DNA of 64,000 nt from an uncultured Woeseiaceae bacterium (GCA_964615665.1 CAZTQL010000001.1:7977-71976), one strand, 5' to 3'. Positions 23,890 to 58,012 are shown, counted from the stretch's first letter. Made by a program: numbers and translations. The notes: generated by a model not told the origin, from the sequence alone.

Positions 23890-23897
23890 CGCCGTAA

Positions 23898-37448: not shown

Positions 37449-37450
37449 CC

Positions 37451-39959: not shown

Positions 39960-39965
39960 CCTCGC

Positions 39966-41606: not shown

Positions 41607-42362
41607 CTAGCTACTCTTGGCCAGAAAACGGGCACCCAGCGTACGTCGCCTGAGGTAGGCATAAACTTCCAGGAGCGGTAGTTCCTTCGGGCAAACGTCG
41701 GCGCAGGCCATCATGCCGAGACACCCAAACACGCCCTGCTCGCCGGCAACCACATCAAACCACTCGGCATCGGAACGCTGATCTCTCGGGTCCATCATGA
41801 AACGTGCAACCCGGTTCATGCCGGCGCCGGCCAGGAATTCGTCGTCAAGGTTCGCGACGCCGCAGGAGGCGACGCAGCAGCCACATTCGATGCAGCGGTC
41901 GCCTTCGTAGATCGCCTCGGCAATGTCGTCGCTCATGCGCTCCTCGGTCGCCTCAGGATCGAATGGCAGCTGTTCATGAATCCAGGCTTCGGTGCGCTCG
42001 GCCATCTCACGGAACCAGGTCCCGGTATCGACGGACAGGTCACCGATCAGCTTGAACGCCGGTAGCGGATACAGCTGGATGTTCTCCGGCAGGTCCGAGG
42101 TCAGCGTGCGGCACGCCAGCGCCGGCCGACCGTTCACCATCATGCCGCAAGATCCGCAAATGGCCGAGCGGCAGGCGAAGTCGAACTGCAACCCCGGGTC
42201 CAGCGTTTCACGGATCTTGCTGAGCGCGATATACAGCGACATGGACGGTGTTTCGTCGATCTCGAAAATGTCCGTGTGCGGTTCGGAATTTTCGTCTTCG
42301 GGGTTGTACCGAAAAATCTCGAACTTCAGTCGACGCGACGCTGTGCTGTGTTCCTGGGTCAT
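41607..42362 (-). CDS. sdhB: succinate dehydrogenase/fumarate reductase iron-sulfur subunit
   Basis: Three Fe-S cluster motifs: CRSAICGSCGMMVNG, CIECGCCVASC and CADVCP. Confidence 0.92.
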   Translation of the reverse strand: MTQEHSTASRRLKFEIFRYNPEDENSEPHTDIFEIDETPSMSLYIALSKIRETLDPGLQFDFACRSAICGSCGMMVNGRPALACRTLTSDLPENIQLYPLPAFKLIGDLSVDTGTWFREMAERTEAWIHEQLPFDPEATEERMSDDIAEAIYEGDRCIECGCCVASCGVANLDDEFLAGAGMNRVARFMMDPRDQRSDAEWFDVVAGEQGVFGCLGMMACADVCPKELPLLEVYAYLRRRTLGARFLAKSS

Positions 42363-42387
42363 TCCCTAAATCCTTTATTGCTGTCCC

Positions 42388-44340
42388 TTACTGCGAATAC
42401 GCTTGCCAGGCACCGCGTTTGAGTCGACTACCCATTTCTTCGCTGCTCGGCAGGCGACCATGCTGCGTCTGTTCGTGCACCACCGTCTCGTTGTAACTAT
42501 CGATCGACTGCTGCATTTCGATGCGCTCGTCGCTGCCGTAACCACGATGCCCCGGCGGCAGATCGATGAGACCGGTTGGCTCGTAGCTGAACGACGGTTC
42601 GCTTTCGTCCATGGCCCAACGGACCAGCGTGCGATTCAGCCACTCTTCGTCGTTTCGCAGCGGAAAGTCGCTGCGAAAATGTGCGCCCCGACTCTCTGTT
42701 CGAGCCCGCGCACCCATCGCAACGGTCATCGCCAATCGCAACATGCCTTTCAGGCGCAACGCAAAACCGAGCTCCGGATTCACTCCGGGATCCTTGCAAC
42801 GGAGCGCAGCGTTGTCGCAATCATCGAGCAAATGACCGATCTCGGCCACGGCTTCATTCAGTTCGTCGCCCGTTCGAAAGATCCCGACCTTGCCCATCAT
42901 GATTTCGCCGAGCGCGTCACGAATCTCGTACACGTTGCGGCCGCTGCCGCCGCCGCTGCGCGCCAACCAGTTCGCCGCCCGATCTTCAGCCGCTTTCAGT
43001 GCGTCAAACGCGATACCGGTATCGGCACGGAGTGACACCCCTGCGGCATGCTCAGCCACACGTCGGCCGACGATCCGCCCTGATACGAGTGTTTCAGCCA
43101 GGCTGTTGCCACCCAGCCGGTTGAAGCCGTGCATATCCCAGCAGGCCGCTTCGCCAACGGCGAACAGCCCGGCGAGCCCGTAAGCTTCGCCATCTTTATT
43201 CACGCGAATGCCGCCCATCGAATAATGCTGTGTCGGGCGTACCGGAATGAGTGCCTTGGCCGGGTTCAGTCCCGCGAAGTCACGGCAAATGTCCCAGACT
43301 TCCAGCAGCTTGGTACGCAGGTGTTTTTCACCCAGGTGGCGGATATCAAGCCACAGGTGCGGGCCATACGGCGAATCCGCGCCGTTGCCGTCACGCATCG
43401 TCTGCTGCATATGCCGCGACACGACGTCACGACTGGCGAGTTCCTGCTTGGCGGGCTCTTTCTCCACCATGAATCGATGCATGTTCTTGTCGAGCAGATA
43501 ACCGCCGTCACCGCGACAACCTTCGGTAACCAGGATGCCGCTCGGCGAAAGCGTGGTGGGATGGAACTGTACGGCTTCCATGTTGCCCATTGGCACAACG
43601 CCAGTATCAAGCGCAATCGACGCACCGGTACCTTCATTGATTGTTGCGTTGCTCGTGTACTGCCCGTAAATGCGCCCGTAGCCACCTGTCGCAATCACCG
43701 TGGCTTTGGCCAGCACAGCGAAGTGCTTGCCGGTGCGCAGGCAGCGCACCACGGCGCCGAGGCAGCGGCCGCCGTCGTGAATCAGCGCCACAGCTTCCGT
43801 GCGGTCGCGTACCGTGATACCGAGACGAACCACCTCGCTGTCAACGGCATAGAGTGCGGCGTGCCCCGTGCCTGCAGCCGCGTAACACGCGCGCCATTTG
43901 GCCGTGCCGCCAAAGTCTCGCTGCCCGATCAGCCCATCGTTCTCGAGGGCCTCATCGATCTCGACATGCTCGCCCTTGATAAAATACTGGTTCTTGCCGC
44001 CCTGCACGCGGCTCCAGGGCACGCCGAAATGAGCGAGCTCGCGCACTGCGATCGGCGCCTCGTCGGCGAAGATATTCGCGACTTCCTGGTCCGCACCCCA
44101 GTCCGAACCGCGAACGGTATCGAGGAAGTGCACCGTGGGATCATCACCTTCGGCCTTGGCGCAATTGCCGAGCGATGCCTGCATACCGCCCTGAGCAGCA
44201 CAGCTGTGGCTGCGTCGCGGTGGCACCAGGGACAGGATCAATGCTTCGTGTCCGGCGGCCGCCGCTTCGATGGCACAGCGCTCGCCGGCAAGACCCCCGC
44301 CGATGACCAGAACGTCGGTAGTAACCAGGGGACCCGTCAT
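42388..44340 (-). CDS. sdhA: succinate dehydrogenase/fumarate reductase flavoprotein subunit
   Basis: 650 aa. The FAD-binding N-terminus is DVLVIGGGLAGERCA. The covalent-FAD His context RSHSCAAQGGM is present, along with a HPT...GCRGDGG catalytic region. It is a long-form FrdA, as in type-B enzymes. Confidence 0.93.
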   Translation of the reverse strand: MTGPLVTTDVLVIGGGLAGERCAIEAAAAGHEALILSLVPPRRSHSCAAQGGMQASLGNCAKAEGDDPTVHFLDTVRGSDWGADQEVANIFADEAPIAVRELAHFGVPWSRVQGGKNQYFIKGEHVEIDEALENDGLIGQRDFGGTAKWRACYAAAGTGHAALYAVDSEVVRLGITVRDRTEAVALIHDGGRCLGAVVRCLRTGKHFAVLAKATVIATGGYGRIYGQYTSNATINEGTGASIALDTGVVPMGNMEAVQFHPTTLSPSGILVTEGCRGDGGYLLDKNMHRFMVEKEPAKQELASRDVVSRHMQQTMRDGNGADSPYGPHLWLDIRHLGEKHLRTKLLEVWDICRDFAGLNPAKALIPVRPTQHYSMGGIRVNKDGEAYGLAGLFAVGEAACWDMHGFNRLGGNSLAETLVSGRIVGRRVAEHAAGVSLRADTGIAFDALKAAEDRAANWLARSGGGSGRNVYEIRDALGEIMMGKVGIFRTGDELNEAVAEIGHLLDDCDNAALRCKDPGVNPELGFALRLKGMLRLAMTVAMGARARTESRGAHFRSDFPLRNDEEWLNRTLVRWAMDESEPSFSYEPTGLIDLPPGHRGYGSDERIEMQQSIDSYNETVVHEQTQHGRLPSSEEMGSRLKRGAWQAYSQ

Positions 44341-45119
44341 GACGCACCGCCTTCGAGCAAGAATGCCAGCGGCGGATCCATCCAGCCTGCCAGCACGATC
44401 AGCGTGACTCCGCCGAGCACGAGAACCAGCCAGAAAATGACCTGCTCAATGCGATGCATGGTCTGGCGCGACAACCAAAGGTCGGCGCCCCATTTGATCG
44501 CCAGCCGGTACAGGCCGACGCTTGCATGAAACTCGACACACAACAGCAGCACAGCGTACGGCAGCCAGAGGCCGGCGCTGACTCTTGCCGTTGATGTCGA
44601 TGACTCGATGCCGGCAATATCACCATACAGCGGCGTGAATATATCCATGCCCAGCAACACCAGGTGAAAGCTGCCAAGTACGAGCATGATCATTCCGGTG
44701 CGCACCTGCCAAATCCACAACAGCGACTCAACATGCGGCCGGAACGGCGAGTACTCGGTTCGAGTCGCTACCTTCTCGCGGCCGGACTGACTAAGCCCTT
44801 TGGCAAGCTGCAGAATCTGTTTGCGTTGGCGTAACTGCGACGGGATCTTGCGTGCAGCAAACACCGCATGTACCAGGAACAACGTAAAGATAGCAAACAC
44901 GGTCGGCTGGGCGATGTAGTAGTCCTCCAGCATCGTCGCCATCCAGTCGAAGCCACGCTCACCGGTCAGGATGGAGCCAACCAGGACAACGTGTCCCCAC
45001 ATGAACAGCGCCAGCAGTAAGCCACTACCGCCGCTGACTACCTCATAGGCCAGTTCGCGACGCGCGGCCGTCGTCGCAGTGGAGTGTGCATTTCGAACCG
45101 ACGATGCCTTGGTGTTCAT
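44337..45119 (-). CDS. sdhC: type-B single-subunit diheme cytochrome b membrane anchor of SQR/QFR
   Basis: The ATG at 45119 abuts the upstream stop at 45122. About 260 aa with five TM helices and four candidate heme-ligand His (WGHVV, LVHAV, SFHLV, EFHAS). The layout resembles the Wolinella/Bacillus/Geobacter FrdC/SdhC class. Confidence 0.8.
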   Translation of the reverse strand: MNTKASSVRNAHSTATTAARRELAYEVVSGGSGLLLALFMWGHVVLVGSILTGERGFDWMATMLEDYYIAQPTVFAIFTLFLVHAVFAARKIPSQLRQRKQILQLAKGLSQSGREKVATRTEYSPFRPHVESLLWIWQVRTGMIMLVLGSFHLVLLGMDIFTPLYGDIAGIESSTSTARVSAGLWLPYAVLLLCVEFHASVGLYRLAIKWGADLWLSRQTMHRIEQVIFWLVLVLGGVTLIVLAGWMDPPLAFLLEGGAS

Positions 45120-45121
45120 CT

Positions 45122-46525
45122 CTAGGGATTCAACTGTGTCAGGATTTCTGGATTCTCCTCGCGCTCGGCGAGGATCGAGTGGCAGGTATCGCAATCACGG
45201 GAAATCGTCTCTCTTTCCTTGGTCCGCAGTCGCTTGCCGTGGCAGCGATAACAACCGTCGGATCGTTCATGACCGATATGTTCGGGATAGGTGTTCCACC
45301 ACACTTTCATTTGCGGGAAGACGTTGACCGAATAAATATCTCCGAGTGTCACGGCGGCGGCCGATATATCGTCGGCCCTTGCGTTTGCAACGTCGGGGTA
45401 ATTTTCCTGGTAATACTGATTCAGCTCGGCCGTGATGACCTCGCGAGCTTCCTCGTGCGAGGCATATTCGGCATCGATAATTCGCAACGCTTCACGTCTC
45501 ACATAAGGCAGCGTTCTGTCGATCAGCCCATCACGAATTGCGACATCAATTTCTGAATCCGGCGCCTGATAATTATGGCTGGGCCGATTGTGACAATCGA
45601 CACAATCCATTTGCCGCCACACGCCGCCGTCTTCCGGAGCCTTTCTATCAGCATACAGCTTGACCTCGCCCTCTTCGTTGGCGTATTCGACTTCGTAAAT
45701 CTCTTCTCGCGTGTCATCTGATCGGTAGCGAATGCTGACGCCAGGATCGACATGCCAGTGTATTCCCGACGACTTCTTACCGGCCTCGCCGCCGACTCTC
45801 AACAACAGAGCCGTCGTCAACTCCGTGTTGGCCTCGTCTTCTTCGTAATGTTTCTTGATCTTCAGCTTGTCGCCCACAAAGCGAGTTGGCCAATGGCACT
45901 GCTCGCAAGTATCGCGCGCCGGGCGCAAATCATGCAGTGGTGTTGGGATCGGTCGCGGATAGAGGTCGAACGCCACTGACACCAGCTGCCAGGCACCATC
46001 CAGTTTCGACTTCACAAACCAGTCCGCACCAGGACCGATATGGCAATCGGCACACAACAACCGCGAGTGCGACGAACGTTGGAACGCCGTGTGTTCAGGT
46101 TCCATCACAGAATGGCAGGCAAGCCCACAAAACTCGACCGACTCCATTACCTCGACGCCTTTGTAGGTTGCACCGGCCACGATGACTACGTTGACCATCG
46201 TTGCACCGAGCAGTATCAGCATCCAGTTACGTGTCTTCGGCTTGTTGAGGTCGAAGATCGGCAACAACGGCATCGACTCGCCACCTGGCGACCGGCGAAT
46301 CCTGCGCCGGTATAACAACGTTCCCAGAGGAATCAGTATCAGCCCGACGACAAAGATCATCGGCAATATCAGAAACGTGATAATGCCGAGATAGGGCCCG
46401 CCCTCGAAGCCAACCTGTGTCATAAAAATCAGGCTGAAGATAAGCACCAGGGCCGCGATTGCAAGCCCGGTGCCGAACAGACTCAGACCGTTCCGGGTAA
46501 TCGACGCTAGAAAACTCTTAAACAC
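45122..46525 (-). CDS. membrane-anchored NapC/NirT-type multiheme cytochrome c (ImcH-like), 5 CXXCH plus 1 CX3CH
   Basis: 467 aa with three N-terminal TM helices. The heme sites are CGLACH (CX3CH, verified on DNA at 46112-46129), CADCH, CEQCH, CVDCH, CYRCH and CDTCH. Confidence 0.8.
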   Translation of the reverse strand: MFKSFLASITRNGLSLFGTGLAIAALVLIFSLIFMTQVGFEGGPYLGIITFLILPMIFVVGLILIPLGTLLYRRRIRRSPGGESMPLLPIFDLNKPKTRNWMLILLGATMVNVVIVAGATYKGVEVMESVEFCGLACHSVMEPEHTAFQRSSHSRLLCADCHIGPGADWFVKSKLDGAWQLVSVAFDLYPRPIPTPLHDLRPARDTCEQCHWPTRFVGDKLKIKKHYEEDEANTELTTALLLRVGGEAGKKSSGIHWHVDPGVSIRYRSDDTREEIYEVEYANEEGEVKLYADRKAPEDGGVWRQMDCVDCHNRPSHNYQAPDSEIDVAIRDGLIDRTLPYVRREALRIIDAEYASHEEAREVITAELNQYYQENYPDVANARADDISAAAVTLGDIYSVNVFPQMKVWWNTYPEHIGHERSDGCYRCHGKRLRTKERETISRDCDTCHSILAEREENPEILTQLNP

Positions 46526-46556: not shown

Positions 46557-48428
46557 TCAGGGCCGGTTTTCCTGTTGCTCGGTTGGTTCATCATAAACGA
46601 CCTCGCCGCGTTCTTCTGCCCTTGAGAACGGCGGTTTACCGGTCCGCCAGGTCGTATCCATCGGATACACCGCTGGATCGAAGATGACAAAGTAGAAGTG
46701 CCAGATGAGGATAGCGAGGGTAGCCAGGATCGCCTCCAGGAAATGCAGCACGGTGGCAGCCTCGGGCACCCAGCCCGGCAGCCAGGTCAGCGTGAAGTTC
46801 TCGAACCACAACACCAGCCCCGTGAGTGCCGTGACGAAGGTACCCCATAGCGCGGCCCAGTATTCGACCTTCTCCACATAGCCGACGCGCACGGGCGCGG
46901 GTGGCTCGGGACGGCGCCCGAGGTTGTAGCCTATCCGGTGGATAAACTCCTTGAAATCGACAAGACCAGGAAGGAACGCCGCGATCTGGTGCCGAGCACT
47001 GGCACTGATTGCAAGATGGCCGAAGTGGAAGAAGCAGGCGCCCATCAGACCGACGGCCGCTATGCGATGAATCAGGCCGCGGAATTCGCCACTGCCAATC
47101 TGCACGAGCTCTGCCCACCAGCTCTCGGGGTATTTCAAAGCAAAACCGCTGACTACCAGTACCATAAAGCTCACAGCCGCTATAACGTGCGCGATCCGAA
47201 ATGGCTTCGACATGCGTTCTTTGATCATGCAGTTTTCCGGGGGCCTGCGCAGGCGCGGCGCCGGATCACGTGCCTTCTTGTTCAGATCGAGCAGGTTGTG
47301 CAACAGCATGCCGATGACCGTGACCCAGATCAGCGGGATATAAATGAGCCGGATCCAGTACGCGACAATGTTGGGTGGCTGGTCGGCCAACATGTGCACG
47401 GGGCCGAGCTCGAAACGGCTGCCCGCTCCCAGGTGACATTGGCCGCAGGTCTCCGCCAGGTTGTCCGGATGAATGTGAGAGCCGGGGTCGCTGGAAGGCA
47501 GGATGTAATGTACACCGTGACAGCTCGCACAATTCGCGACCTTTTGCACGCCTCCGCGTGCAGCAAGCCCATGGAAGCTGTCCTCATAGGAAGGGACCTG
47601 CTCAGCATCCAGTCCGTATTTCTCGCCCAGGCGCAAATCCGAATGGCAGGGGCCACAGACACGGATCGGAATGTTGGTCGCCGATACCGGTGAGCCCTCC
47701 GCGGCCACGGCCAGAATTCGATGCTCGCCATGACAATCCGTGCAGACGGGCGAGTCATCGATGCCGTTGGCGGCGGCCAGGCCATGAATACTCTGCTCGA
47801 ACTTGGCAGTGATCTCAGCATGACAGGTACCGCAGGTGCCTGGCACATTTGAACGGTGGATCGAAGAAGCAGGGTCTGCGGCCGGAAGCGGCGAGTGAGC
47901 GGAATGGCAATCGCTGCAGCCCGCGCCATGCTCGCCATTGATCACTGCGGCGGCATGCACACTGGCGGTATAGGCTTCTATCGGGCGAATCGTGCGAACG
48001 CCCGCGGGTGCCGGCTGCCCGGAGCCATGGCAGGCCCCGCAGGTCTCTCCCTGACGGCTGGCGTGTACGGGAGAGGATCGCTCAGTCGCTAGCGTCATGG
48101 CATGTATTTCGCCATGACAACTCGAACATGAGGGAAGCTCCAGGTCAGACATGCGTTGCCGGCCCTCCGATCCATGCACGCTCACACTCTGTTCGTCGAC
48201 AGCCTCCGCATGACAACCCGCACAGCCGACCGGATCGAGCCCGCGCCTGTGCCGACGTTCCCCGCCAACATGGCAATCAAGGCATTCCGTGGCGCCGTGC
48301 GGGGTGCTCTCAAAGAGCGCCACATCGACTTCGTGGCAATCGTTGCAGGGATGTTCATCCTCCTCGGCGTCGACCGTCTGAAACACGAACAGCAGGCAGG
48401 GAACCAGGATGGTTAGCAGTTTGCGCAT
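46557..48428 (-). CDS. fusion protein: periplasmic 11-heme cytochrome c plus C-terminal membrane diheme cytochrome b domain (CbcL-like)
   Basis: 623 aa with a signal peptide. The 11 CXXCH sites are CNDCH, CLDCH, CAGCH, CSSCH, CGACH, CSDCH, CGTCH, CTDCH, CGPCH, CASCH and CGQCH. About 5 TM helices follow, with conserved His (IAHVI, LIHRIAAV, LHFLEA...IWHFYF). Confidence 0.85.
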   Translation of the reverse strand: MRKLLTILVPCLLFVFQTVDAEEDEHPCNDCHEVDVALFESTPHGATECLDCHVGGERRHRRGLDPVGCAGCHAEAVDEQSVSVHGSEGRQRMSDLELPSCSSCHGEIHAMTLATERSSPVHASRQGETCGACHGSGQPAPAGVRTIRPIEAYTASVHAAAVINGEHGAGCSDCHSAHSPLPAADPASSIHRSNVPGTCGTCHAEITAKFEQSIHGLAAANGIDDSPVCTDCHGEHRILAVAAEGSPVSATNIPIRVCGPCHSDLRLGEKYGLDAEQVPSYEDSFHGLAARGGVQKVANCASCHGVHYILPSSDPGSHIHPDNLAETCGQCHLGAGSRFELGPVHMLADQPPNIVAYWIRLIYIPLIWVTVIGMLLHNLLDLNKKARDPAPRLRRPPENCMIKERMSKPFRIAHVIAAVSFMVLVVSGFALKYPESWWAELVQIGSGEFRGLIHRIAAVGLMGACFFHFGHLAISASARHQIAAFLPGLVDFKEFIHRIGYNLGRRPEPPAPVRVGYVEKVEYWAALWGTFVTALTGLVLWFENFTLTWLPGWVPEAATVLHFLEAILATLAILIWHFYFVIFDPAVYPMDTTWRTGKPPFSRAEERGEVVYDEPTEQQENRP

Positions 48429-48462: not shown

Positions 48463-51318
48463 CTAACGGTAACCGAACAGCATCGTGTAAATGATCAGGC
48501 TCAGCAGAACCAGCCCGAAGGCGAGTGCCGCGAAGCCGAATATCCTCACGCCGCGTTCTTTACCCTCTGGGAAGGCTTTCACGAGATGATTCTCCAGCTC
48601 ACCGGATTTCACCATCGCTTCGTACTCGCCAGGCTTATCGTATTTCAGCTCTTCCACGGATATCCGCCCACTGAATATCACGGGATCCATGGGGAACTTG
48701 TCGGGCCGGAAGTGTGTGTTGAAGAAATGAATCGTAAATATGAAACCGACCGCGAGCAGCGCCTCGTCACTGTGGATGATCGTCGCCACGTTGACGGCCC
48801 AGCCAGGAACGATGTAGGTGAACGTTTCGGGGAACCACAGGACCAACCCTGTCGTACCAATTATGGCCACACCCCAGGCAACCGCGAAGTAGTCGAACTT
48901 CTCCCAATACGTGTAACGACCGTAACTGGGGCGGGGGCCCATGCCGAAGAACCACTTGATGGACTGGATGAACTCCTTGAGGTCGCGGCCGTTGAAAATG
49001 ATGGAATCCGGTCCGGTAATGATCTGCAACCAGGTGTGCCCCGTGGTCTTCTTGTGACGAAGCACATCGATCACGTGCGCAATGAAGACGCCGATCAACA
49101 CAACCGCACCGACGCGATGCAGGAATCCCATACTATCGAACCCGCCGAGGACCCTGGAGGTCAACTGTGCCCAGAACATATACGAAAATTTCAATGCCAT
49201 GCCCGTCAACGCCAGCGTGAAGAAGCTGAGCATCATTACGACATGCATGGTGCGCTGGTAGCGACTGAATCGACGGTAGAATTTCTGGTCTTTGTTGCGG
49301 GCAATAGCCTTATGCGCCTTCCACTCTTCGCGGTTCAGCAATAGGCGTACAACCCAGGCCAGCGTATGCAGCAGCGCAAACGACAGCGTACCGACCAGCA
49401 ACGCGGTCATGCCCCAGAAGGACCAGAACAACCACGGGTAGGTCGCGCGATCGTGGTGCGTCGCGTGTGTCAGGTAGCCGGCAAAACGCCGGTGCGATCC
49501 TTCGTGACACTGGCCACAAGTCTCAACCACGTTGTCGCGGCTAAGCCGCGAGGCAGGGTCGGCGGGACTGAGAATATCGTGCGTGCCATGACAGTCGTAA
49601 CACTTGGCAACGCCCTCTGCGCCGAGGCGCGAGACCTTGCCGTGAAACGTGTCAAAGTAGGTCTCAGTCTGGTCTTCGTGACAGCGGCCGCACTGCTCCA
49701 TCATCTCTGTGCGGAATCCCACATCTTCGGTGCGAGAGATCGTGTGCGAAGCGTGACAGTCCTCGCAGGTGGGATACTCTTTGTCGGGATCCGGGTCGTC
49801 AGACCAGTGGACGCTGGCGCGGAACGTCTCCTCTACCCCGTGGTGGCAGGTACCGCAGGTGCCAGCGATATTTTGTGGACTCACGGGGGACTCCGGATCC
49901 TCCGGAGGACGCTCGGAGTGTGCGCCATGACAATCGGCGCAGGTTGCCGACACGATGAGGCCGGCATTCAAGGCTCGACCATGAACGCTGTCTTCATAGC
50001 TGCCCACGATATCGTCCACTTTGGCGTGGATCCGGGTCGCGGCCTGTTCACCGACGCGATGACACTCTCCGCATAGCGCGGGGACGTTACGCGGATAGGT
50101 AGGCGACACGGGAAGTTCACTGCCGAGTGTGGCGTGTTTGGCATGGCAGTCCCGGCAGATCGGTGCATCCGGATCGTCTTGCGCATGCAGGGTTCCGTGC
50201 GCACTGCCCTGGTACTCGGTGACCTGTTCGGCATGGCAGATGCTGCAATCCACGGGTGACTGCACAGTTTCGCAGGCGCGTTCCTGGGCGACCGTCACAT
50301 CCGTGTGACATTGAGCGCAGGCGGTGTCTGCATGCATCGAGCCCTCGTAGGCCTGCTCGTCAACGTACAGACTGACGGTTTCTCCATCGCGAGTCATCGC
50401 CAGATCCGTCTGGCTATGGCAGGTCAGGCAATCCTTGTCGGCCAGACCGTCAGGGTAGAAAACGGCGCGAATCTTGTGTGGGGCATGGCAGTCGACGCAG
50501 GCCGGAATCTTGCCCGGATTTTCCTCCCACAGATTGCCTTCGATCACCTTGCGATGAACGCGCTCAATCTGCCCATGGCAGGTAGTGCACATCGTAGCGA
50601 CATTGTCCGGGTGGATGCTCGACCGAGGATCGGTATGCGGAAGGATGTCATGAGACGTGTGACAGGAAGTACAGACGGCTGTGACGGTGAGGCCTTGCTG
50701 GAACAGGCCCTCGCCGTGAATACTCATCGAGTAATTCTCGATGATGTTGTCCTGGGAGATCTCGTGAGTTCGCGATACGGGAGCGCCCTCGCGGTGACAA
50801 CTGCCGCAGAGCAGCGGCACGTTCATTATCGCTGTCGACGCGTCCGGATCCGAGGCTGACAGGACTTCGTGCTTGCCGTGGCAGTCGGCACAATTCGGTG
50901 CCATCGGATCGCCGTTTTTTGCGGCCGTGCCATGCAGGCTGCCGCCATGCGCTCTCGCCTGGGACTTGTGGCAATCACCACAATCGACAGGCTCCAGGTC
51001 CTCAGCGTGCCGCCGACGTTTTGACCCGGCAAGGTCCTTGTGACAATCCACACAGGCAGTACCGGCGTGCACGGAAGTGGCGCCCGCTTTCGCGGCAACA
51101 TAGACCGAAATCTCCTCATCTCCGCGGTAACCGGTAAGCTCCGGGTCGTCATGACACTTGAGGCATCTGCTGTCCTCCTGCGCCAATGCGGGCGTTCCTG
51201 CGAACCAGAGAATCGCGGTCGCCGCGACGAACCAAAAGGTTCGGCGACTACTTGGGAGGAGTCGGTGGCCGGGCGAGCGGCCACGCGAAAGACGCGCGAG
51301 GAGAGCGACCTTTGTCAT
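48463..51318 (-). CDS. fusion protein: periplasmic 19-heme cytochrome c plus C-terminal membrane diheme cytochrome b domain (CbcL-like, expanded)
   Basis: 951 aa with a signal peptide ending ALAQE and 19 CXXCH motifs. About 6 TM helices follow, with His positions matching the paralog (TMHVV, FLHRVGAV, IIHSDEA...TIHFF). Confidence 0.85.
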   Translation of the reverse strand: MTKVALLARLSRGRSPGHRLLPSSRRTFWFVAATAILWFAGTPALAQEDSRCLKCHDDPELTGYRGDEEISVYVAAKAGATSVHAGTACVDCHKDLAGSKRRRHAEDLEPVDCGDCHKSQARAHGGSLHGTAAKNGDPMAPNCADCHGKHEVLSASDPDASTAIMNVPLLCGSCHREGAPVSRTHEISQDNIIENYSMSIHGEGLFQQGLTVTAVCTSCHTSHDILPHTDPRSSIHPDNVATMCTTCHGQIERVHRKVIEGNLWEENPGKIPACVDCHAPHKIRAVFYPDGLADKDCLTCHSQTDLAMTRDGETVSLYVDEQAYEGSMHADTACAQCHTDVTVAQERACETVQSPVDCSICHAEQVTEYQGSAHGTLHAQDDPDAPICRDCHAKHATLGSELPVSPTYPRNVPALCGECHRVGEQAATRIHAKVDDIVGSYEDSVHGRALNAGLIVSATCADCHGAHSERPPEDPESPVSPQNIAGTCGTCHHGVEETFRASVHWSDDPDPDKEYPTCEDCHASHTISRTEDVGFRTEMMEQCGRCHEDQTETYFDTFHGKVSRLGAEGVAKCYDCHGTHDILSPADPASRLSRDNVVETCGQCHEGSHRRFAGYLTHATHHDRATYPWLFWSFWGMTALLVGTLSFALLHTLAWVVRLLLNREEWKAHKAIARNKDQKFYRRFSRYQRTMHVVMMLSFFTLALTGMALKFSYMFWAQLTSRVLGGFDSMGFLHRVGAVVLIGVFIAHVIDVLRHKKTTGHTWLQIITGPDSIIFNGRDLKEFIQSIKWFFGMGPRPSYGRYTYWEKFDYFAVAWGVAIIGTTGLVLWFPETFTYIVPGWAVNVATIIHSDEALLAVGFIFTIHFFNTHFRPDKFPMDPVIFSGRISVEELKYDKPGEYEAMVKSGELENHLVKAFPEGKERGVRIFGFAALAFGLVLLSLIIYTMLFGYR

Positions 51319-51420: not shown

Positions 51421-51795
51421 TCAGGCGGCATACAGCGGACTGATGTCCATGTAGATCTTGTAGTGCGCGATCAATTCGCCGTCGACCTCAAAAATGTCGG
51501 TAAACGGCAGCGTAATCTCGGTACCGTCCGACCGGGTATAAGTCACCTCACCCTCGATGAGTTGCGTCGACCCATCCACGACGACCTTCGCAATAGCATG
51601 AGATAAGCCGGCGATTGTGCCGAAGAACCCGTCGACGGCCGCCGCAACGGCGTCACGTCCCTGCACAGGCGGAGCAGAACCAAAACGAAACACGGCGTCG
51701 TCGCTCAGGAAGCCGACGAACGCCGTGGTGTCTTGCCGATCAATGGCGGCAAAAACGCCGCCAGTATCAAAACTGGCGGCGGGTGCCTCTGTCAT
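51421..51795 (-). CDS. NTF2/SnoaL-like fold protein
   Basis: 124 aa with no signal peptide. The pattern (FLSDDAVFRFG...GRDAV...F..I....H, C-terminal IAHYKIYMD) is typical of SnoaL-like small proteins. The ATG overlaps the upstream stop (ATGA). Confidence 0.6.
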   Translation of the reverse strand: MTEAPAASFDTGGVFAAIDRQDTTAFVGFLSDDAVFRFGSAPPVQGRDAVAAAVDGFFGTIAGLSHAIAKVVVDGSTQLIEGEVTYTRSDGTEITLPFTDIFEVDGELIAHYKIYMDISPLYAA

Positions 51796-52403
51796 TGAAC
51801 GCTGCCGTAGTAATGAACCAAAGCTGTTACGTCATCTGCGGACAACATAGCCACTTTTTCTTTCATTTTCTTCGGTTGATCGCGCGAGCCGTCAACGAAC
51901 TGCGCCATGGTGGTTTCCAGATAGCCCATCATCTGTCCACCCATCATGCCGGCTTCGTCTTCGGCATTGGTGCCAGCATCTGAATGACACTTGTCGCAGT
52001 GCTCGTCGTGCAGAGCCTTGCCTGCGTCAACCAGACCGGCATCAAAGTCCTGTTTTACTTTCACATAGTCGAGCTCGGCGTACGCTAAAGCGATCGCGTC
52101 GATATCGTCCTCGCTCAACTCTGCCGCTATCGCGCACATCGTCGTGGCAGGTTTGCCCGTATCGCCATGCCGATATTCAGATTCCGCACAGGGCCGGCCT
52201 TCTTCCTGGTAAACATACAGCGCATCGACGTGCACGAACTCGGGAAAACCGGCTAGCGTCGGTACGTCGCTCGATTCACTGACGCCACCGGGGCCATGGC
52301 AGCTATTACAGTCAGCCATCATCGACTCTACGTCGCCTGCATTGGCGGAAGTGGCAGCGAGCGCCAGCAAGGCTGCTGCTGTGGAAAAAATTAGTCGTTT
52401 CAT
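51792..52403 (-). CDS. periplasmic diheme class-I cytochrome c (c4-like)
   Basis: The ATG at 52403 is preceded by GGAG and gives signal peptide MKRLIFSTAAALLALAATSANA. Two CXXCH motifs (CNSCH, CDKCH) sit in two domains of about 90 aa each. The upstream 36 codons of the ORF were rejected. Confidence 0.8.
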   Translation of the reverse strand: MKRLIFSTAAALLALAATSANAGDVESMMADCNSCHGPGGVSESSDVPTLAGFPEFVHVDALYVYQEEGRPCAESEYRHGDTGKPATTMCAIAAELSEDDIDAIALAYAELDYVKVKQDFDAGLVDAGKALHDEHCDKCHSDAGTNAEDEAGMMGGQMMGYLETTMAQFVDGSRDQPKKMKEKVAMLSADDVTALVHYYGSVQ

Positions 52404-52670
52404 GTCGTCTCCTCGGAGTTCCGATCTCTTGCGGGTTATTACCACGATTATCGTTGCTGCAATCTGAATACACCCTGAACGAGGGCGCGTTTCGACTGCG
52501 GGGTTTAGCATATTATCAGGCCGCCTCCAAGCGACAACCAGTAGGTAGATGCCGTGATATCATCTACAGACGTATTTGTTACAACACATACCTTGAATTT
52601 ATAACGATTCTAAACGGGGCAACTGGTTAAGAATCAATCACTTACAACATCGACCTTCTGAGGGAACGAC
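52404..52670. promoter_or_regulatory. divergent promoter/control region between the two cytochrome operons
   Basis: 267-bp, visibly AT-richer non-coding gap. A candidate sigma70-like element for mtrC is TTGTTA (52576-52581), 17 nt, TTATAA (52599-52604). The palindrome TGATATCA lies at 52555-52562. Confidence 0.4.
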
Positions 52671-54926
52671 ATGAGCCGTCCATTCGACCCCCGATCTAAA
52701 ATTTTGAGCCTTCTATGCGCATCCGCATTACTGTTCGCATGCAGTGGAGATACGGGCCCGACGGGCCCGGCCGGAGCGTCTGGTTCAACCGGTTCGACCG
52801 GACCCGGCGGATCCACCGGCTCGACAGGCGGCACCGTGTCCGCTTTGGTACCGATCCAGTCGGTGGAAAAAATCAACGTGTCGTACGACAGCGTAGCGAT
52901 TGAGGCCGGCGGCCAGGCTCCCGACATCTTAATGCGCCTGACGGACGATTTCGGCTTCGGGATCACCGGTCTGCCGGCGGCAAGCGTGGGCTTTACGTTG
53001 GCACAGCTTTCGCCAGGCCAGGACGGTGGTTCGAGCGAATGGCAGTCATACGTGACGCGCAACAGCGCCGGAATTGAGAACGCGCAGGCAACAACGGAAT
53101 CGGCCGGCGCAGGCAGCTTCACGGATAACGGCGACGGCACCTATACCTATGTCTTCGCACAGAACCTGCCCGACTATGCGGGCGGCCCCACATTCGACGC
53201 CAACAAGATTCACCGTCTCGGCGTGGAGATTCGCACCGATCGCGGCGGCTTCCTGCCCGAGAACATCCCGGCGAACAACGCACCGTTTGATTTTGTGCCG
53301 GCCGGCGGCAGCCCCGCCGATCTGGAGCAGCGACTTATTGTCAACAACGACGCCTGCAATGCCTGTCATGACAACCTCGAACTGCACGGTGAAGCGCGCT
53401 TCGATGTCGAGTATTGCGTGACCTGCCATAACCCCTACTCCGTCGATGGCGATACCGCCGACGAGCCGTGGGGCGGCTCGGTTGATATGACAGTGATGAT
53501 CCACAAGATTCACTTTGGCGTGAATCTGACCAACGGTTACCGAGTTGTTGGGTACGGTGGCTTTGAGCACGACTACTCCGACGTCGAATTTCCGCAGGAC
53601 GTACGCAACTGCACAACCTGCCACCAGGAATCGAACGACGCGGTACCGCAAGCCAGCAACTGGCGCACCGTGCAGAACCGCGCCGCCTGTGGCACCTGCC
53701 ATGACGACATCGACTGGGAAGGCGGCACGCATCCGGGTGGCTTTGTCTTCACAGACGACCTGCAATGTCAGGATTGTCACGATGACACCGCTCCGGCGAC
53801 TGAGGCTAAACTCCGGGTCTCCGAAGCGCATGCCCAGCCCAATCGCGAGGCTAGCGAACGATTCGCTTACAACATCCTGGATATCAGTGAGACCGACGTC
53901 GGAGACTTCCCGGTGATCCAGTACTCGGTCACCGACCCAACCAACGGCGACGCGCCTTACGATCTTCTAGGCGATCCGGAATGGACCGTTTGTGGCCCGG
54001 CCCGACTGGCTGTAGGCATTGCCTGGGATACGGCCGACTATCACAATAACGATAGCGGCAACGCCCCGGGCCTGGGCGTATCGATGAACGCGATCAACTG
54101 TTTCGGTGGTTCTCCTGCCGACCTCGGTGCCGGTGTGTTTAGCGTCACTTCACCGGTTGCCGTACCTGCCACCGCCGGTGGGTCGCTCGCGGTAACCATT
54201 GACGGGCATCCCGCGGTCGATATCGGCGGCACGCTCGAGCGGATCGCCGTGACCAATGCCGTGGCCTATGCGGCAATAACGGACGCCACAGCCAAGCCAC
54301 GCCGCAACGCGGTCGCCATTGAAAAGTGCGACGACTGCCATAGTCAGCTGGCGATACATGGCAATAACCGCACGGACAACATCGAGGTTTGTGTGACCTG
54401 TCATGCGCCGAATGCCACCGATGTCAACCAACGTGGCGGCGACTGCGAAACTGACCTTGGTCTCGATGATTCGTCGATTGACATGAAGTACATGATCCAT
54501 GCGATCCACGCGTCTGGGACCATTGAAGTTCCTTACGAGGTTTGCGGATTCGGCAACTCAACCCACGTGTATGACTTTGTTTACCCGGGCAAGCTGAACA
54601 ATTGCGAAGGCTGCCATGTCCCGGGCGGCTATTACCCGGTTGATCCGAGCAATGTACTTGGCACGACCGTCGATACTGGCCCGGACAAGACCACGCCAAT
54701 GGATGACAAGGTCGTATCGCCGAACTCGTCTGTCTGCTCGTCCTGTCATACGAGCACGCTTGCGGCGAATCACATGACCCAGAACGGTGGTGACTTCGAT
54801 GCGAGAAAATCCGCGGACAGCACGCTGATATCGTCCGGCGCAGAGACCTGCGAACTCTGCCACGGAGAAGGCCGTCAGTCGGATGTCAAGGTAGTGCACG
54901 GTATCGAAGCGTTCGAGTTCAACTAA
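52671..54926 (+). CDS. mtrC: OmcA/MtrC-family outer-surface decaheme cytochrome c lipoprotein
   Basis: 751 aa with lipobox LLFACSG and 10 CXXCH motifs in a 5+5 arrangement split by a heme-free region of about 180 aa. The overall layout (heme-free N-terminal domain, pentaheme, heme-free, pentaheme) matches MtrC. It is followed by mtrA and mtrB. Confidence 0.88.
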   Translation: MSRPFDPRSKILSLLCASALLFACSGDTGPTGPAGASGSTGSTGPGGSTGSTGGTVSALVPIQSVEKINVSYDSVAIEAGGQAPDILMRLTDDFGFGITGLPAASVGFTLAQLSPGQDGGSSEWQSYVTRNSAGIENAQATTESAGAGSFTDNGDGTYTYVFAQNLPDYAGGPTFDANKIHRLGVEIRTDRGGFLPENIPANNAPFDFVPAGGSPADLEQRLIVNNDACNACHDNLELHGEARFDVEYCVTCHNPYSVDGDTADEPWGGSVDMTVMIHKIHFGVNLTNGYRVVGYGGFEHDYSDVEFPQDVRNCTTCHQESNDAVPQASNWRTVQNRAACGTCHDDIDWEGGTHPGGFVFTDDLQCQDCHDDTAPATEAKLRVSEAHAQPNREASERFAYNILDISETDVGDFPVIQYSVTDPTNGDAPYDLLGDPEWTVCGPARLAVGIAWDTADYHNNDSGNAPGLGVSMNAINCFGGSPADLGAGVFSVTSPVAVPATAGGSLAVTIDGHPAVDIGGTLERIAVTNAVAYAAITDATAKPRRNAVAIEKCDDCHSQLAIHGNNRTDNIEVCVTCHAPNATDVNQRGGDCETDLGLDDSSIDMKYMIHAIHASGTIEVPYEVCGFGNSTHVYDFVYPGKLNNCEGCHVPGGYYPVDPSNVLGTTVDTGPDKTTPMDDKVVSPNSSVCSSCHTSTLAANHMTQNGGDFDARKSADSTLISSGAETCELCHGEGRQSDVKVVHGIEAFEFN

Positions 54927-55879
54927 TGGCGACATTAGTTACTCGTCGCGGCTGGCTTAGCCTGCCCGTGCTGATGATGGCTCTCGTGGCCATCGCAGCG
55001 CCGGCCACGTCGTTGGCCCAGGATGACGAAGCGCCAAGCTATAGTAAGGAAGGCGCGGACACCTGCTTCAAATGCCATGACGATCAAGTCGTGTTGGGCG
55101 TATTTCGCACCAAGCATGCGGTACCGACGGATCCAAACTCCCCGTTTGGGCACGGCCAGTTGCAGTGCGAAGCGTGCCACGGTCCTGGCGGCGACCACTC
55201 CGGGCGCGTGCGCCGCGGTAAGGAACGGCCGGTTATGGTGCGCTTTGGCTCCGATAGCGGCACGCCGGTGCCCGAGCAGAACTCATACTGCCTGGACTGT
55301 CATTTGCCCGATGCCGGGTTCGCCTGGCACGGGAGCGCTCACGACGACAACACGGTCGCCTGCGCCGACTGCCATGACAGCCACGTCGAACGTGACCCGG
55401 TCCTCGCAACAACGACTCAGGCCGAGGTTTGCTTCGACTGCCATCAGCAGCAACGCACCGCGTCGATGAAACCGTACGCGCACCCACTGCGTGACGGCAA
55501 AATGACATGCACCGGCTGCCACAACACGCATGGCGATACGACCGAGCTGCTGCTGGCCCGCACAACCACCAATCAGACCTGCTTCGACTGTCACGCAGAA
55601 AAACGCGGGCCCTACCTCTGGGAACATGCGCCTGCTGCCGAGGACTGCGGCAACTGTCACGATCCGCACGGCTCCAACCATCCGGGCATGCTGTCGAAGC
55701 GCGCTCCGCTACTCTGCCAGAGCTGCCATTCACAGGACGGCCATCCGAGCCTGCCGCAGGATGAACGTGGCCTGCCATCCGGCACGGCCTCTCGATTCCT
55801 GCTGGGTCAGAGCTGTCTCAACTGCCATGAACAGGTGCACGGATCGAACCATCCGTCCGGCACCAAGCTAATGCGCTAG
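54926..55879 (+). CDS. mtrA: MtrA/DmsE-family periplasmic decaheme cytochrome c
   Basis: 317 aa with a signal peptide and 10 CXXCH motifs at high density (CFKCH, CEACH, CLDCH, CADCH, CFDCH, CTGCH, CFDCH, CGNCH, CQSCH, CLNCH). The ATG overlaps the mtrC stop (TAATG). Confidence 0.92.
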   Translation: MATLVTRRGWLSLPVLMMALVAIAAPATSLAQDDEAPSYSKEGADTCFKCHDDQVVLGVFRTKHAVPTDPNSPFGHGQLQCEACHGPGGDHSGRVRRGKERPVMVRFGSDSGTPVPEQNSYCLDCHLPDAGFAWHGSAHDDNTVACADCHDSHVERDPVLATTTQAEVCFDCHQQQRTASMKPYAHPLRDGKMTCTGCHNTHGDTTELLLARTTTNQTCFDCHAEKRGPYLWEHAPAAEDCGNCHDPHGSNHPGMLSKRAPLLCQSCHSQDGHPSLPQDERGLPSGTASRFLLGQSCLNCHEQVHGSNHPSGTKLMR

Positions 55880-55891
55880 GAGCGTCGTGCG

Positions 55892-58012
55892 ATGTTGAAT
55901 AGAACGAACCGATTCACTCCTGCTCTCTTCGCGCTGTTGCCGCTTCTGGCGCCGGGCATTGGCATCGCCGAAGTCGACACCAGCGACTGGAAGTGTGAGT
56001 CGTGCCCGTTTGATGACGGCTACCGGGCCAATGTCAGCGCGGGCGCTACCTACGTCGGCGAGGATGGCGCTATTCGCTTCGGCAGCGCCACCGGGTATGA
56101 CGACAAGGGCGGCTACGCCAATGTCGACGGCCAGGGACGCTACGTCAGCGACGGCTACCGGCTCGACTGGACCCTCGAAGATCTTGGCCTCGACTCGCGC
56201 GTCTTCACTCTGGACGCCGGTCGTCAAGGTAGCTTCGGCGTGCACGTGGGTTATCGAGAGCTGCCCTACTGGCAATTCGATTCGACGCGGACTGTTTTCA
56301 ATTCCTCCACGTCCGACACGCTCACATTACCCTCCGACTGGGTGCCGGCAGGCCTGACCTCGGACATGACGCGGCTGTCATCGTCGCTGCGTCGACAAAA
56401 CATTGGCAGCGACCGGCAGATCATGGACATTGGGGGGGACTGGCAGCCGGCTGAGGCCTTCCGACTGTACGCCGACTTCCAACGCCAGAATCGGGATGGC
56501 ATCGACATTACCGCCGGCTCGAGCTACACGCAGGCGTCTCTGCTGCCGCGCTGGATCGATTACGAGACCGACCAGATCGACGCTGGCATCCGGTATGGCA
56601 CAGCTCGCTCAAGTCTGACGCTGGCGTATTTCGGCTCGTCTTTTACGAACCAGAACCCATCGATCACCTGGGACACGCCGTTTACCTCCGGCCCCGGCAC
56701 TGAGCAGCTGCGGGCAGCAACAGCGCCGGAAAACGAGTTCCAGCAGATCTCGCTGTCGGGTGCGTACCGCGCAACGATGTGGGACACCGTCCTTGCCTTC
56801 TCACTGGCGTCCGGCACCGGCAAACAAAACGAGACTTTCCTGCCTTACACGATCAACCCGAACGTGGGCGCGGGCGCGCTGCCGAAGAACTCTCTCGACG
56901 GCAAAGTCGACACGAGCAACTATGCGCTGACCGTAACGTCACGACCGTTTCCGAAGGCCCGGGTAAAACTCTCTTACCGCTATGACGACCGCGACAACAA
57001 GACGCCGCAGTCCGAATGGAACCGTGTCGTCGTCGACGTTTTCCAGGTCACAGATACCGAGCAGAATATACCTTACAGTTTCGAACGCTCGGCATTCTCG
57101 CTGAGTGGCGAGCTGTTGGTCTGGAAAGGCATTCGCGTTTCTGGTGGCTGGGATCGCAAAGAACTGAATCGCGATTATCAGGAGGTAGCGGAACAGACGA
57201 CTGACGCCGGCTGGGGACAGGCGAGCTGGAAACCGCTGGCGTGGCTCGACCTGCGCATTAAAGGCGGCGCGTCAGAACGTGACATTGATCGCTATAACGA
57301 AACACTTGCCGTCAGCTTCGGCCAGAACCCGCTGATGCGGAAATACAATCTGGCGTATCGCTACCGCAGCTACGGAGAGTTGAACGCGTCCATCACACCG
57401 GTTGAATCGCCGATCTCCCTCAGCACAACGGTTCTGTATGCCGACGATCGCTACAACCGATCCCAGCTGGGCATGACTGACAGCGAAGAGGTACGAGCAA
57501 CGGCTGACTTGAACTGGGCCGTCACTGACAACACCAGTTTTTTCCTGATGTACGGCTATGAAGACATCGATGCGCTGCAGCTTGGTTCCGAGCAAAACGG
57601 CTACTGGGATTGGAGCGCAAAACATGAAGACAGCTTCGACCATGTGGGCGGTGGTTTTCGCTGGCGCCAGGCCGAAGGCAAGCTCGATCTGCGCGTCGAC
57701 TTCAACCGCGGCAGTGGCAAGACGACGGTCGATCTCTTTAGTGTGAGTGGTGGAGAAAGCCGCCTGCCAGACCTGGAATCGACGCTCGACTCAGCGCGCG
57801 TCGAAGCGCGCTATCGCTGGAGCGAGCGTGTCGACGCTACGTTCGACTTGCGCTACGAGAGCTTTGAGGTTGACGACTACGCGCTGGTATCGCCCTCGAC
57901 AGTATCAACCGTGCTGACTCTGGGCGCCGAGCCCTACGACTACAAGGTATGGGCGGTGGGTTTCGGGATACGCTACAGCTTTGGCGGCGGTGAGATTACG
58001 TTAGCCGAATAG
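55892..58012 (+). CDS. mtrB: MtrB/PioB-family outer-membrane beta-barrel porin
   Basis: 706 aa with a signal peptide and the N-terminal CxxC motif (DWKCESCPF) known from Shewanella MtrB. The rest has an alternating beta-strand pattern rich in Y/W/D/R, with a C-terminal aromatic residue four positions from the end (...YSFGGGEITLAE). Confidence 0.88.
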   Translation: MLNRTNRFTPALFALLPLLAPGIGIAEVDTSDWKCESCPFDDGYRANVSAGATYVGEDGAIRFGSATGYDDKGGYANVDGQGRYVSDGYRLDWTLEDLGLDSRVFTLDAGRQGSFGVHVGYRELPYWQFDSTRTVFNSSTSDTLTLPSDWVPAGLTSDMTRLSSSLRRQNIGSDRQIMDIGGDWQPAEAFRLYADFQRQNRDGIDITAGSSYTQASLLPRWIDYETDQIDAGIRYGTARSSLTLAYFGSSFTNQNPSITWDTPFTSGPGTEQLRAATAPENEFQQISLSGAYRATMWDTVLAFSLASGTGKQNETFLPYTINPNVGAGALPKNSLDGKVDTSNYALTVTSRPFPKARVKLSYRYDDRDNKTPQSEWNRVVVDVFQVTDTEQNIPYSFERSAFSLSGELLVWKGIRVSGGWDRKELNRDYQEVAEQTTDAGWGQASWKPLAWLDLRIKGGASERDIDRYNETLAVSFGQNPLMRKYNLAYRYRSYGELNASITPVESPISLSTTVLYADDRYNRSQLGMTDSEEVRATADLNWAVTDNTSFFLMYGYEDIDALQLGSEQNGYWDWSAKHEDSFDHVGGGFRWRQAEGKLDLRVDFNRGSGKTTVDLFSVSGGESRLPDLESTLDSARVEARYRWSERVDATFDLRYESFEVDDYALVSPSTVSTVLTLGAEPYDYKVWAVGFGIRYSFGGGEITLAE

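Follow-up and report, generated by a model that had tools for sequence, protein, structure and literature searches.

A 19-heme cytochrome c/b fusion of the CbcL type, a probable gateway between quinone pool and periplasm, encoded next to mtrCAB in an uncultured Woeseiaceae bacterium

The 64,000-nucleotide stretch of DNA analysed here (the window; GCA_964615665.1, CAZTQL010000001.1:7977-71976) comes from an uncultured Woeseiaceae bacterium and carries a gene for a protein of 951 residues in which 19 c-type hemes are joined to a two-heme cytochrome b. The gene is real and intact and encodes an inner-membrane protein, a long form of a known family of quinone-pool gateways that was already listed in 2018 and is present in hundreds of species. 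On balance, sequence and analogy with the CbcL/MtrH/MtoC family suggest that it probably serves as an electron gateway between the quinone pool of the inner membrane and the periplasm. The coding sequence and its export signal are as follows.

Positions 48463-51318, minus strand: whole open reading frame, 951 residues with an ATG start; 19-heme c domain fused to a diheme cytochrome b of the CbcL/MtrH/MtoC type (open reading frame list, translation, motif count, full-length homologs).
Positions 51181-51318, minus strand: signal peptide, residues 1-46, with a long n-region, a hydrophobic core and a cleavage site between ALA and QE (sequence reading, homolog N-termini).

The open reading frame list and the translation placed the gene at the coordinates given by the original prediction, on the minus strand, and both the Sec signal and the 19 heme-binding motifs that it had described were recovered by reading of the cleavage site and by motif count. 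The hydrophobic core of the signal peptide, FWFVAATAILWFAG, is followed by ALA and, after cleavage, QE. Homolog N-termini have the h-region and A-x-A followed by Q(E/D) in common, and not the RR motif. Export by the twin-arginine translocation (Tat) pathway was considered and rejected, the stretch 'SRRTFWF', to be compared with the Tat motif S/T-R-R-x-F-L-K, being present here and missing from most orthologs; because this Tat-like 'SRRTF' stretch is not conserved in homologs, the signal is read as a Sec and not a Tat signal. Maturation of c-type cytochromes follows Sec export.

Exactly 19 CXXCH motifs are found between residues 52 and 605, at positions 52, 89, 113, 143, 171, 216, 244, 274, 297, 334, 358, 388, 416, 460, 488, 518, 543, 573 and 601, whereas 20,000 shuffles of the protein gave a mean of 0.097 and a maximum of 3. 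A scan of the whole protein for CX3-4CH motifs found none. There are 39 cysteines, and C349 is the only one outside a CXXCH motif. Five copies of a paired module had been proposed, in which two CXXCH motifs flank a DP-containing stretch. Four copies fit this pattern, at residues 143-175, 216-248, 460-492 and 573-605, whereas the fifth, at 388-420, has LP where the others have DP, and the spacing after the first motif is CxxCH-x2-H instead of the CxxCH-x-H first given.

Separate c and b subunits occur in other Cbc complexes, and a mis-assembly or a frameshift might have made one reading frame out of two genes, one for a multiheme cytochrome and one for a cytochrome b, a possibility that the original prediction had itself raised. 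The identical protein, however, is recorded from other assemblies, and at least 120 protein clusters share 62-100% identity with it, mostly at full length (920-1000 residues), the named ones being from Woeseiaceae or Gammaproteobacteria. A scan of one genome per species found relatives in at least 596 species from about 15 phyla. The best 80 of these species loci show 48-76% identity, nearly all of them over almost the entire 951 residues, and come from Woeseiaceae, Acidobacteriota, Gemmatimonadota, Zixibacteria, Ignavibacteria, Bacteroidota, Planctomycetota, Eisenbacteria, Omnitrophota, Myxococcota and other groups. When 70 homologs are aligned, all heme motifs, 18 further histidines of the c domain and the membrane histidines prove invariant; across 74 long members of the family, drawn from many phyla, the motifs, the extra histidines and the transmembrane histidines are nearly so. 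Proteins of the same architecture are described in print from many genomes, among them that of an isolate. Since the fusion is conserved at full length, we regard an artefact of assembly or reading frame as excluded, with a negligible residual probability.

The C-terminal part of the protein is a membrane domain with six transmembrane helices (TM), on which hydropathy and the AlphaFold2 model agree: residues 628-661, 686-710, 727-759, 804-828, 838-870 and 918-949. Its elements are listed below.

Positions 49450-49476, minus strand: juxtamembrane motif YLTHATHHD, residues 615-623, on the periplasmic face before TM0; H618 is present in 74 of 74 long members (invariant columns).
Positions 49336-49437, minus strand: TM0, residues 628-661, an extra helix running from periplasm to cytoplasm and bearing the conserved H651 (AlphaFold2, hydropathy, positive loop, conservation).
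Positions 48709-49275, minus strand: predicted FdnI-type four-helix cytochrome b core, residues 682-870, with ligands H692 (TM1), H734 (TM2), H849 and H864 (both TM4) (profile against 1kqf_C, Foldseek, TIGR01583).
Positions 48889-48918, minus strand: RYTYWEKFDY, residues 801-810, invariant, where TM3 begins on the cytoplasmic side; its aligned counterpart in FdnI is the loop K108-F117, including N110-Q113 (alignment, invariance).
Positions 48472-48567, minus strand: TM5, residues 918-949, a C-terminal sixth helix found in CbcL-type proteins and not in the neighbouring 11-heme paralog (hydropathy, AlphaFold2, GSU0274 layout in PMC6295460 Table S2).

Searched against the PDB as a single sequence, the b domain gave no match. 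A profile built from 22 diverse b domains gave a sole match, Escherichia coli FdnI (1kqf_C), with an E-value of 6.6e-12. In this alignment H692, H734, H849 and H864 correspond to the histidines that ligate hemes bC and bP in FdnI, namely H18, H57, H155 and H169. The same four histidines are invariant in 70 homologs and conserved in the paralog encoded next to the gene, as the original prediction of about six helices and four shared histidines had it. The full AlphaFold2 model has an overall predicted local distance difference test score (pLDDT) of 68.7 and a predicted template modelling score (pTM) of 0.47, with pLDDT values of 70-85 in the membrane part. Its best PDB match by Foldseek is again 1kqf_C, with probability 1.00, a TM-score (target) of 0.73 and a root-mean-square deviation of 4.4 Å over 234 columns, so that the comparison with FdnI that had been suggested as a check came out in favour on both counts. 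The TIGR01583 model matches residues 682-866 with 30.7 bits against a cut-off of 115.85. As judged from alignment and model, the transmembrane domain is an FdnI-type diheme cytochrome b with the four-helix FdnI fold. The stretch 108-117 of FdnI, to which RYTYWEKFDY corresponds, reportedly includes a loop that is part of the menaquinone/2-heptyl-4-hydroxyquinoline N-oxide (HQNO) site (Jormakka 2002). The loop that follows TM0 (residues 658-690) is strongly positively charged.

Two further histidines lie near the cytoplasmic side, H651 in TM0 (positions 49366-49368, minus strand) and H748 in TM2 (positions 49075-49077, minus strand), and are found in 74 of 74 long members and in the paralog. In the wider family H651 is at least 90% conserved, whereas H748 is not. 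These residues could form the wall of the quinone site or bind an additional cofactor; this pair is not claimed to carry a third b heme, given that H748 is unconserved in the wider family.

The architecture is that of the CbcL/MtrH/MtoC family. Zhong and Shi (Front Microbiol 2018; PMC6295460) catalogued 138 such homologs from 15 phyla, of 416-1034 residues and with 3-23 CX2CH motifs, mostly with six transmembrane helices, with conserved membrane histidines and often clustered with mtrAB or mtoAB; identities in that survey range from 28.6 to 100%. The Geobacter sulfurreducens protein CbcL (GSU0274) has 619 residues, 9 hemes and the six-helix layout (PMC6295460). Three features of the family as these authors define it, an exported domain with multiple CX2CH motifs, six C-terminal transmembrane helices and similarity to CbcL, are found here, and on the fourth, quinol oxidase or quinone reductase activity linked to extracellular electron transfer, the gene context is the information at hand: a 626-residue representative with the heme spacing of CbcL (P0202), used as a proxy for GSU0274, is 34% identical over residues 333-929 (E 7e-93). 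The CbcL-like architecture put forward by the original prediction, a multiheme c domain joined to an FdnI-type diheme b domain with six helices, thus holds; the idea of a much longer version as a new form is not supported, since homologs with 3-23 hemes, many of them with 19, were tabulated in 2018. Table S2 of PMC6295460 holds about 20 proteins with 19 motifs and 906-952 residues, with motif and helix positions that nearly coincide with those of the protein described here, as well as one 23-heme protein. Among the 19-heme examples are Gemmatimonadetes bacterium MAF27600.1 (951 residues), Cabys_319 of the isolate Caldithrix abyssi (920 residues) and KKN60529.1 from a marine sediment metagenome (924 residues). 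No paper linking Woeseia with CbcL, and none proposing a periplasm-spanning CbcL, was found in the literature.

The distribution of heme numbers, which had also been suggested for checking, was obtained from a census with the b-domain profile. This returned 3258 representatives of 50%-identity clusters, 880 of them at E<=1e-30, and heme counts among the top 150 representatives of at least 550 residues range from 5 to 22, with modes of 9 and 11 and three proteins with 19. Of the 74 long members, 54 have 19 hemes and the rest 17-23. A 21-heme subgroup (P0080-P0120) shows 62-64% identity to the 19-heme protein, and some relatives among the surveyed loci have 23 hemes. One representative with 22 hemes and 1005 residues (P0138) looks like the product of a further heme-unit duplication, and another of 1126 residues (P0196), in which a sigma-54-activator-like N-terminus precedes an 11-heme c/b protein, is probably a fusion introduced by gene calling.

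The heme count of the protein is explained by two repeats.

Positions 50323-51180, minus strand: heme-domain repeat 1, residues 47-332, with hemes 1-9 and nine conserved non-motif histidines (84, 104, 129, 150, 201, 223, 228, 255, 281) (motif positions, conservation, identity to repeat 2).
Positions 49483-50322, minus strand: heme-domain repeat 2, residues 333-612, with hemes 10-19; the unit common to the 11-heme paralog (37% identity) and to 9-heme CbcL-type proteins (BLAST against the paralog, MAFFT, BLAST against P0202).
Positions 50272-50274, minus strand: C349, the only cysteine outside a CXXCH motif (family conservation, repeat alignment).

Identity between residues 40-332 and 318-612 is 40%, and heme motifs and distal histidines are in register in a MAFFT alignment of both halves, the paralog and MtrA. 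The heme domain is thereby recognisable in its sequence as a tandem duplication of the 9-10-heme unit of ordinary family members, and the 19 hemes can be read as 9 plus 10 because the halves are 40% identical, the register is kept and the second half is the 9-heme CbcL-type unit. With the heme domain of the 11-heme paralog the two halves share 32-40% identity, and with the MtrA encoded at the same locus 24-28%, again with heme motifs in register. The DmsE/MtrA family model TIGR03508 matches the protein at E 3.5e-25; with 88.9 bits against a cut-off of 192.2, membership of that family, whose proteins carry ten hemes in about 300 residues and insert into an MtrB-type porin, was rejected, and the resemblance to MtrA/DmsE appears real but weak. 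A heme-domain profile gave weak PDB matches to NrfB (2ozy, E 9e-6), MtrF and one 'cytochrome c' entry. No convincing structural relative of the heme domain, MtrA included, was found by Foldseek with either the full AlphaFold2 model or a separate model of repeat 2; the latter (pLDDT 76, pTM 0.68) gave only weak matches to the hydroxylamine oxidoreductase HAO, with TM-scores of at most 0.34.

Inspection of motifs and conserved histidines revealed no evident catalytic-type heme in the domain, such as a CXXCK motif or a missing distal ligand, and the conserved histidines together with C349 and H618 are sufficient in number for six-coordinate hemes. C349 is located near the start of repeat 2, in the stretch that links hemes 10 and 11, and is kept in 68 of the 74 long members, from many phyla. 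It takes the position of the invariant H104 in repeat 1 and of H60 in the paralog. From this alignment C349 may be a distal ligand that gives a His/Cys heme, or H618 could be that ligand instead.

The gene is part of a tight minus-strand array in the order PdsA-like gene, SnoaL-like gene, 19-heme gene, 11-heme/b paralog, ImcH-like gene and frdCAB, divergent from mtrC, mtrA and mtrB.

Positions 52671-58012, plus strand: mtrC (52671-54926), mtrA (54926-55879) and mtrB (55892-58012), in divergent orientation to the cytochrome genes (Pfam and NCBIfam cut-offs passed).
Positions 51792-52511, minus strand: PdsA-like periplasmic diheme cytochrome c (NF049874 PdsA, E 8.8e-50, 169 bits, below the 330-bit cut-off).
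Positions 51421-51795, minus strand: SnoaL/NTF2-like protein of 124 residues without signal peptide, between the PdsA-like and 19-heme genes.
Positions 46557-48428, minus strand: neighbouring paralog, 623 residues, with 11 CXXCH motifs, an FdnI-type b domain and five transmembrane helices.
Positions 45122-46525, minus strand: ImcH-type inner-membrane cytochrome, 467 residues, with three N-terminal transmembrane helices, a CX3CH motif (CGLACH at 133) and CXXCH at 158, 207, 308, 425 and 445.
Positions 41607-45194, minus strand: frdCAB/sdhCAB operon with a diheme, Wolinella-type cytochrome b subunit, directly after the cytochrome genes.

The b domain of the 11-heme paralog is 31% identical to that of the 19-heme protein and is without TM5. 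The layout of the ImcH-like protein is that of six-motif ImcH homologs in PMC6295460 Table S3, for instance from Anaeromyxobacter (468 residues; 134, 158, 207, 309, 425, 445). Its gene, annotated publicly as 'NapC/NirT family cytochrome c', lies about 6 kb from mtrC here; no mtrAB adjoining imcH was reported in the 2018 survey (PMC6295460). The presence of frd operons beside mtrCAB has been noted by Baker et al. 2022, without firm explanation. The island is flanked by genes of sodium bioenergetics, namely nqrA-F with apbE (34110-40985, plus strand), a UbiA-family prenyltransferase (32743-34089, plus strand) and subunits of a Na+-translocating oxaloacetate decarboxylase (22753-25673, minus strand). 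A strong terminator-like hairpin at 51756-51781 (minus strand; 10-bp stem with 8 G-C pairs, then TTTTT) is found just past the stop codon of the PdsA-like gene and inside the first SnoaL codons as called. Because of this position, the SnoaL-like gene may start further downstream and pdsA may be partly insulated transcriptionally. A scan for promoters and terminators yielded no more sites than in shuffles and is hence uninformative.

Three other Woeseiaceae loci (L004, L006 and L028) have pdsA, snoaL and the 19-heme gene in the same order, divergent from mtrCAB, and the 19-heme gene lies about 1.4 kb from mtrC here and in two other Woeseiaceae. Beyond this lineage the picture was drawn from the best 80 species loci with 10 kb flanks (83 loci for neighbour counts). 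Mtr genes are found in about 3 of the 80, MtrB or MtrC occurring only in Woeseiaceae, bar two weak cases. Since most orthologs are without nearby Mtr genes and one Woeseiaceae ortholog stands alone, the Mtr link may be lineage-specific; obligatory linkage to mtrCAB was rejected, about 75 of the 80 loci being without Mtr genes within 10 kb. Across phyla, 38 of 83 loci have a second, shorter c/b fusion and 21 of 83 an ImcH-like gene, and the long fusion, the shorter fusion and the ImcH-like gene often recur as a triad. No conserved non-cytochrome neighbours were found across phyla within these flanks.

Proximity to mtrCAB raises the question of how far the heme domain could reach. In MtrA, ten hemes span 80 Å and the first heme (A1) lies about 20 Å into the periplasm, which in Shewanella is about 235 Å wide. 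The 19-heme domain could be pictured as a rigid rod that crosses the periplasm and docks on MtrA, so that the quinone pool would be wired to the outer-membrane conduit with no need for diffusible carriers. The duplicated unit, the weak MtrA likeness of each half, the TIGR03508 match and the short distance to mtrC in three Woeseiaceae would agree with such an arrangement, and two units at 80 Å each would amount to about 160 Å. However, this is an upper bound for two collinear MtrA-like units, in a rough estimate, and for a periplasm of the Shewanella width it falls short of the gap of about 215 Å between inner membrane and heme A1. In addition, a PdsA-like shuttle gene is conserved two genes upstream, nearly all orthologous loci are without Mtr genes nearby, the DmsE model score is far under its cut-off and Foldseek found no match to MtrA. 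We therefore consider a rigid wire of this kind very doubtful. Because the estimate falls short, the PdsA-like gene is conserved and Mtr linkage is rare, direct contact with MtrA, which the original prediction had proposed together with a periplasm-spanning chain, is unlikely. It is tempting to speculate about a variant, in which a rigid wire of about 15 nm links the quinone pool to MtrA, alone or with one bound PdsA, and C349 provides a His/Cys heme of very low potential that acts as a gate and switches the wire with redox potential; this would be highly improbable.

Conversely, the protein may have no particular connection with Mtr at all. Its long heme domain would then either store electrons in the periplasm or itself reduce soluble or colloidal acceptors that enter this compartment, and the adjacency to mtrCAB would be secondary. 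This would fit the wide occurrence of orthologs, usually without Mtr genes within 10 kb, neighbours that are variable except for multiheme cytochromes, the second c/b fusion and the ImcH-like gene, and the 76%-identical Woeseiaceae ortholog that stands alone. On the other hand, the counts cover 10 kb flanks and outer-membrane conduits may be encoded elsewhere in the genomes, and no catalytic-type heme is evident, the conserved potential ligands being sufficient in number for six-coordinate hemes. A role independent of Mtr thus appears quite unlikely to us.

The protein is, by analogy, most likely a quinol:periplasmic-cytochrome oxidoreductase, and probably a reversible one. The Geobacter quinol oxidases ImcH and CbcL serve high- and low-potential acceptors, respectively, and the FdnI-type geometry of CbcL has been argued to make it non-energy-conserving; adjacent ImcH and CbcL homologs of Desulfuromonas are expressed on electrodes, and PdsA carries electrons to MtrA in Aeromonas and Vibrio. 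Along these lines, the Sec signal would export the 19-heme domain while the C-terminal six-helix domain keeps it tethered. Quinol would be oxidised at a site near the cytoplasmic-side b heme, in line with the published argument for a quinone site on that side; electrons would cross the membrane via the two b hemes, enter the c-heme chain near the YLTHATHHD motif and pass along it, its hemes being mostly of the presumed bis-His kind. Soluble carriers such as the PdsA-like diheme cytochrome may take them over in this Woeseiaceae genome and pass them on to MtrA and the MtrCAB complex. The ImcH-like and 11-heme proteins could be alternative gateways tuned to other potentials, as in Geobacter. Three alternative gateways from the quinone pool that feed PdsA and MtrCAB, probably in a reversible manner, would be the most economical reading of the island by analogy with these systems. 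Given the FdnI-type geometry, outward flow would consume membrane potential and so suit low-potential acceptors, as argued for CbcL, whereas inward flow would conserve energy, and the enzyme is therefore probably reversible.

Several observations weigh against this assignment. Long members of the family are known from their sequences alone, and whatever is said here of heme b binding, of the quinone used, of the direction of electron flow and of the partners is inference. The PdsA match stays well below the NCBIfam cut-off, the large majority of species loci lack nearby Mtr genes, and one close ortholog within the Woeseiaceae stands on its own. Confidence in the AlphaFold2 models is low to medium, and the c domain is without a convincing structural relative. 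The PF01292 (Ni_hydr_CYTB) match, over residues 614-769, passes its threshold only barely (31.6 against 30.1 bits) and out of FdnI register; for these reasons it is the weaker evidence for the b domain, the profile-to-PDB and fold matches being stronger.

Electrons might also flow mainly inwards, the protein acting as an MtoC-like quinone reductase supplied through MtrCAB from Fe(II), reduced minerals or partner cells, with energy conserved as in formate dehydrogenase-N. The b domain has the FdnI arrangement by profile alignment and Foldseek, an arrangement that is energy-conserving in the inward direction in formate dehydrogenase-N. MtoC members sit in mtoAB clusters of Fe(II) oxidisers, and the family has been proposed to be bidirectional (PMC6295460). 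Against this, the combination of a full extracellular MtrC with a PdsA-like protein in the cluster recalls Aeromonas and Vibrio, which reduce metals, the neighbouring ImcH-type protein belongs to a family so far tied only to reducers (PMC6295460), and sediment Woeseiaceae with mtrCAB are read as iron reducers in the literature. We consider mainly inward flow an unlikely alternative to the outward, quinol-oxidising gateway; the points against it are compatible with a reversible enzyme.

In marine sediments Woeseiaceae rank among the most abundant bacteria, and mtrCAB genes have been noted in them only recently. The island described here includes probable inner-membrane feeders of MtrCAB, an ImcH-type protein and two CbcL-type proteins, one of them with 19 hemes, as well as a PdsA-like shuttle, and provides concrete targets for the study of metal respiration or electron uptake in this group. 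CbcL-type proteins with 17-23 hemes occur in hundreds of species from many phyla, and duplication of the heme unit might extend periplasmic reach, store charge or gate electron flow. The points of note are this duplication, the conserved C349 and the assembly of ImcH, CbcL, PdsA and Mtr genes in one Woeseiaceae island.

Compared with the 19-heme proteins listed in 2018, the protein is of the same length class, with 19 CXXCH motifs and six transmembrane helices at matching places. The motif positions of MAF27600.1 (53, 90, 113, 143, 171, 216, 244, 274, 297, 333, 357, 387, 415, 460, 488, 520, 545, 575 and 603) are near-identical to those given above. The copy described here differs in its origin from a member of the Gammaproteobacteria, the Woeseiaceae, and in its location, an island that also contains mtrCAB, the 11-heme paralog and PdsA-like and ImcH-like genes; linkage to mtrAB or mtoAB was reported in PMC6295460 for the short MtrH and MtoC forms and not for 19-heme forms, and the duplication was not analysed there. 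With CbcL it shares a signal peptide, a periplasmic multiheme c domain, a connecting transmembrane helix, an FdnI/HydC-type diheme b core and a sixth transmembrane helix, all in one chain. CbcL, however, has 9 hemes in 619 residues, against 19 hemes in 951 residues here by way of the tandem duplication, and its partners are PpcA-type triheme carriers and Pcc/Ext conduits, whereas the neighbours here are a PdsA-like protein and MtrCAB. The likeness to FdnI (1KQF chain C) lies in the four-helix diheme b core, the same four histidines on helices 1, 2 and 4, and a conserved loop before helix 3 at the position of the quinone-site loop. Unlike the 19-heme protein, FdnI is a separate subunit of 217 residues, fed by an iron-sulfur subunit whose transmembrane helix packs against it, whereas the protein described here has TM0 and TM5 in the same chain and a fused multiheme c domain as electron partner; the two histidines of helix 4 are 15 residues apart here and 14 in FdnI. 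MtrA/DmsE and NrfB, finally, resemble the heme domain in having about 30 residues per heme and paired CXXCH modules, with motifs that align in register, but MtrA is sheathed in MtrB, whereas the 19-heme domain is tethered to the inner membrane and is without a porin partner.

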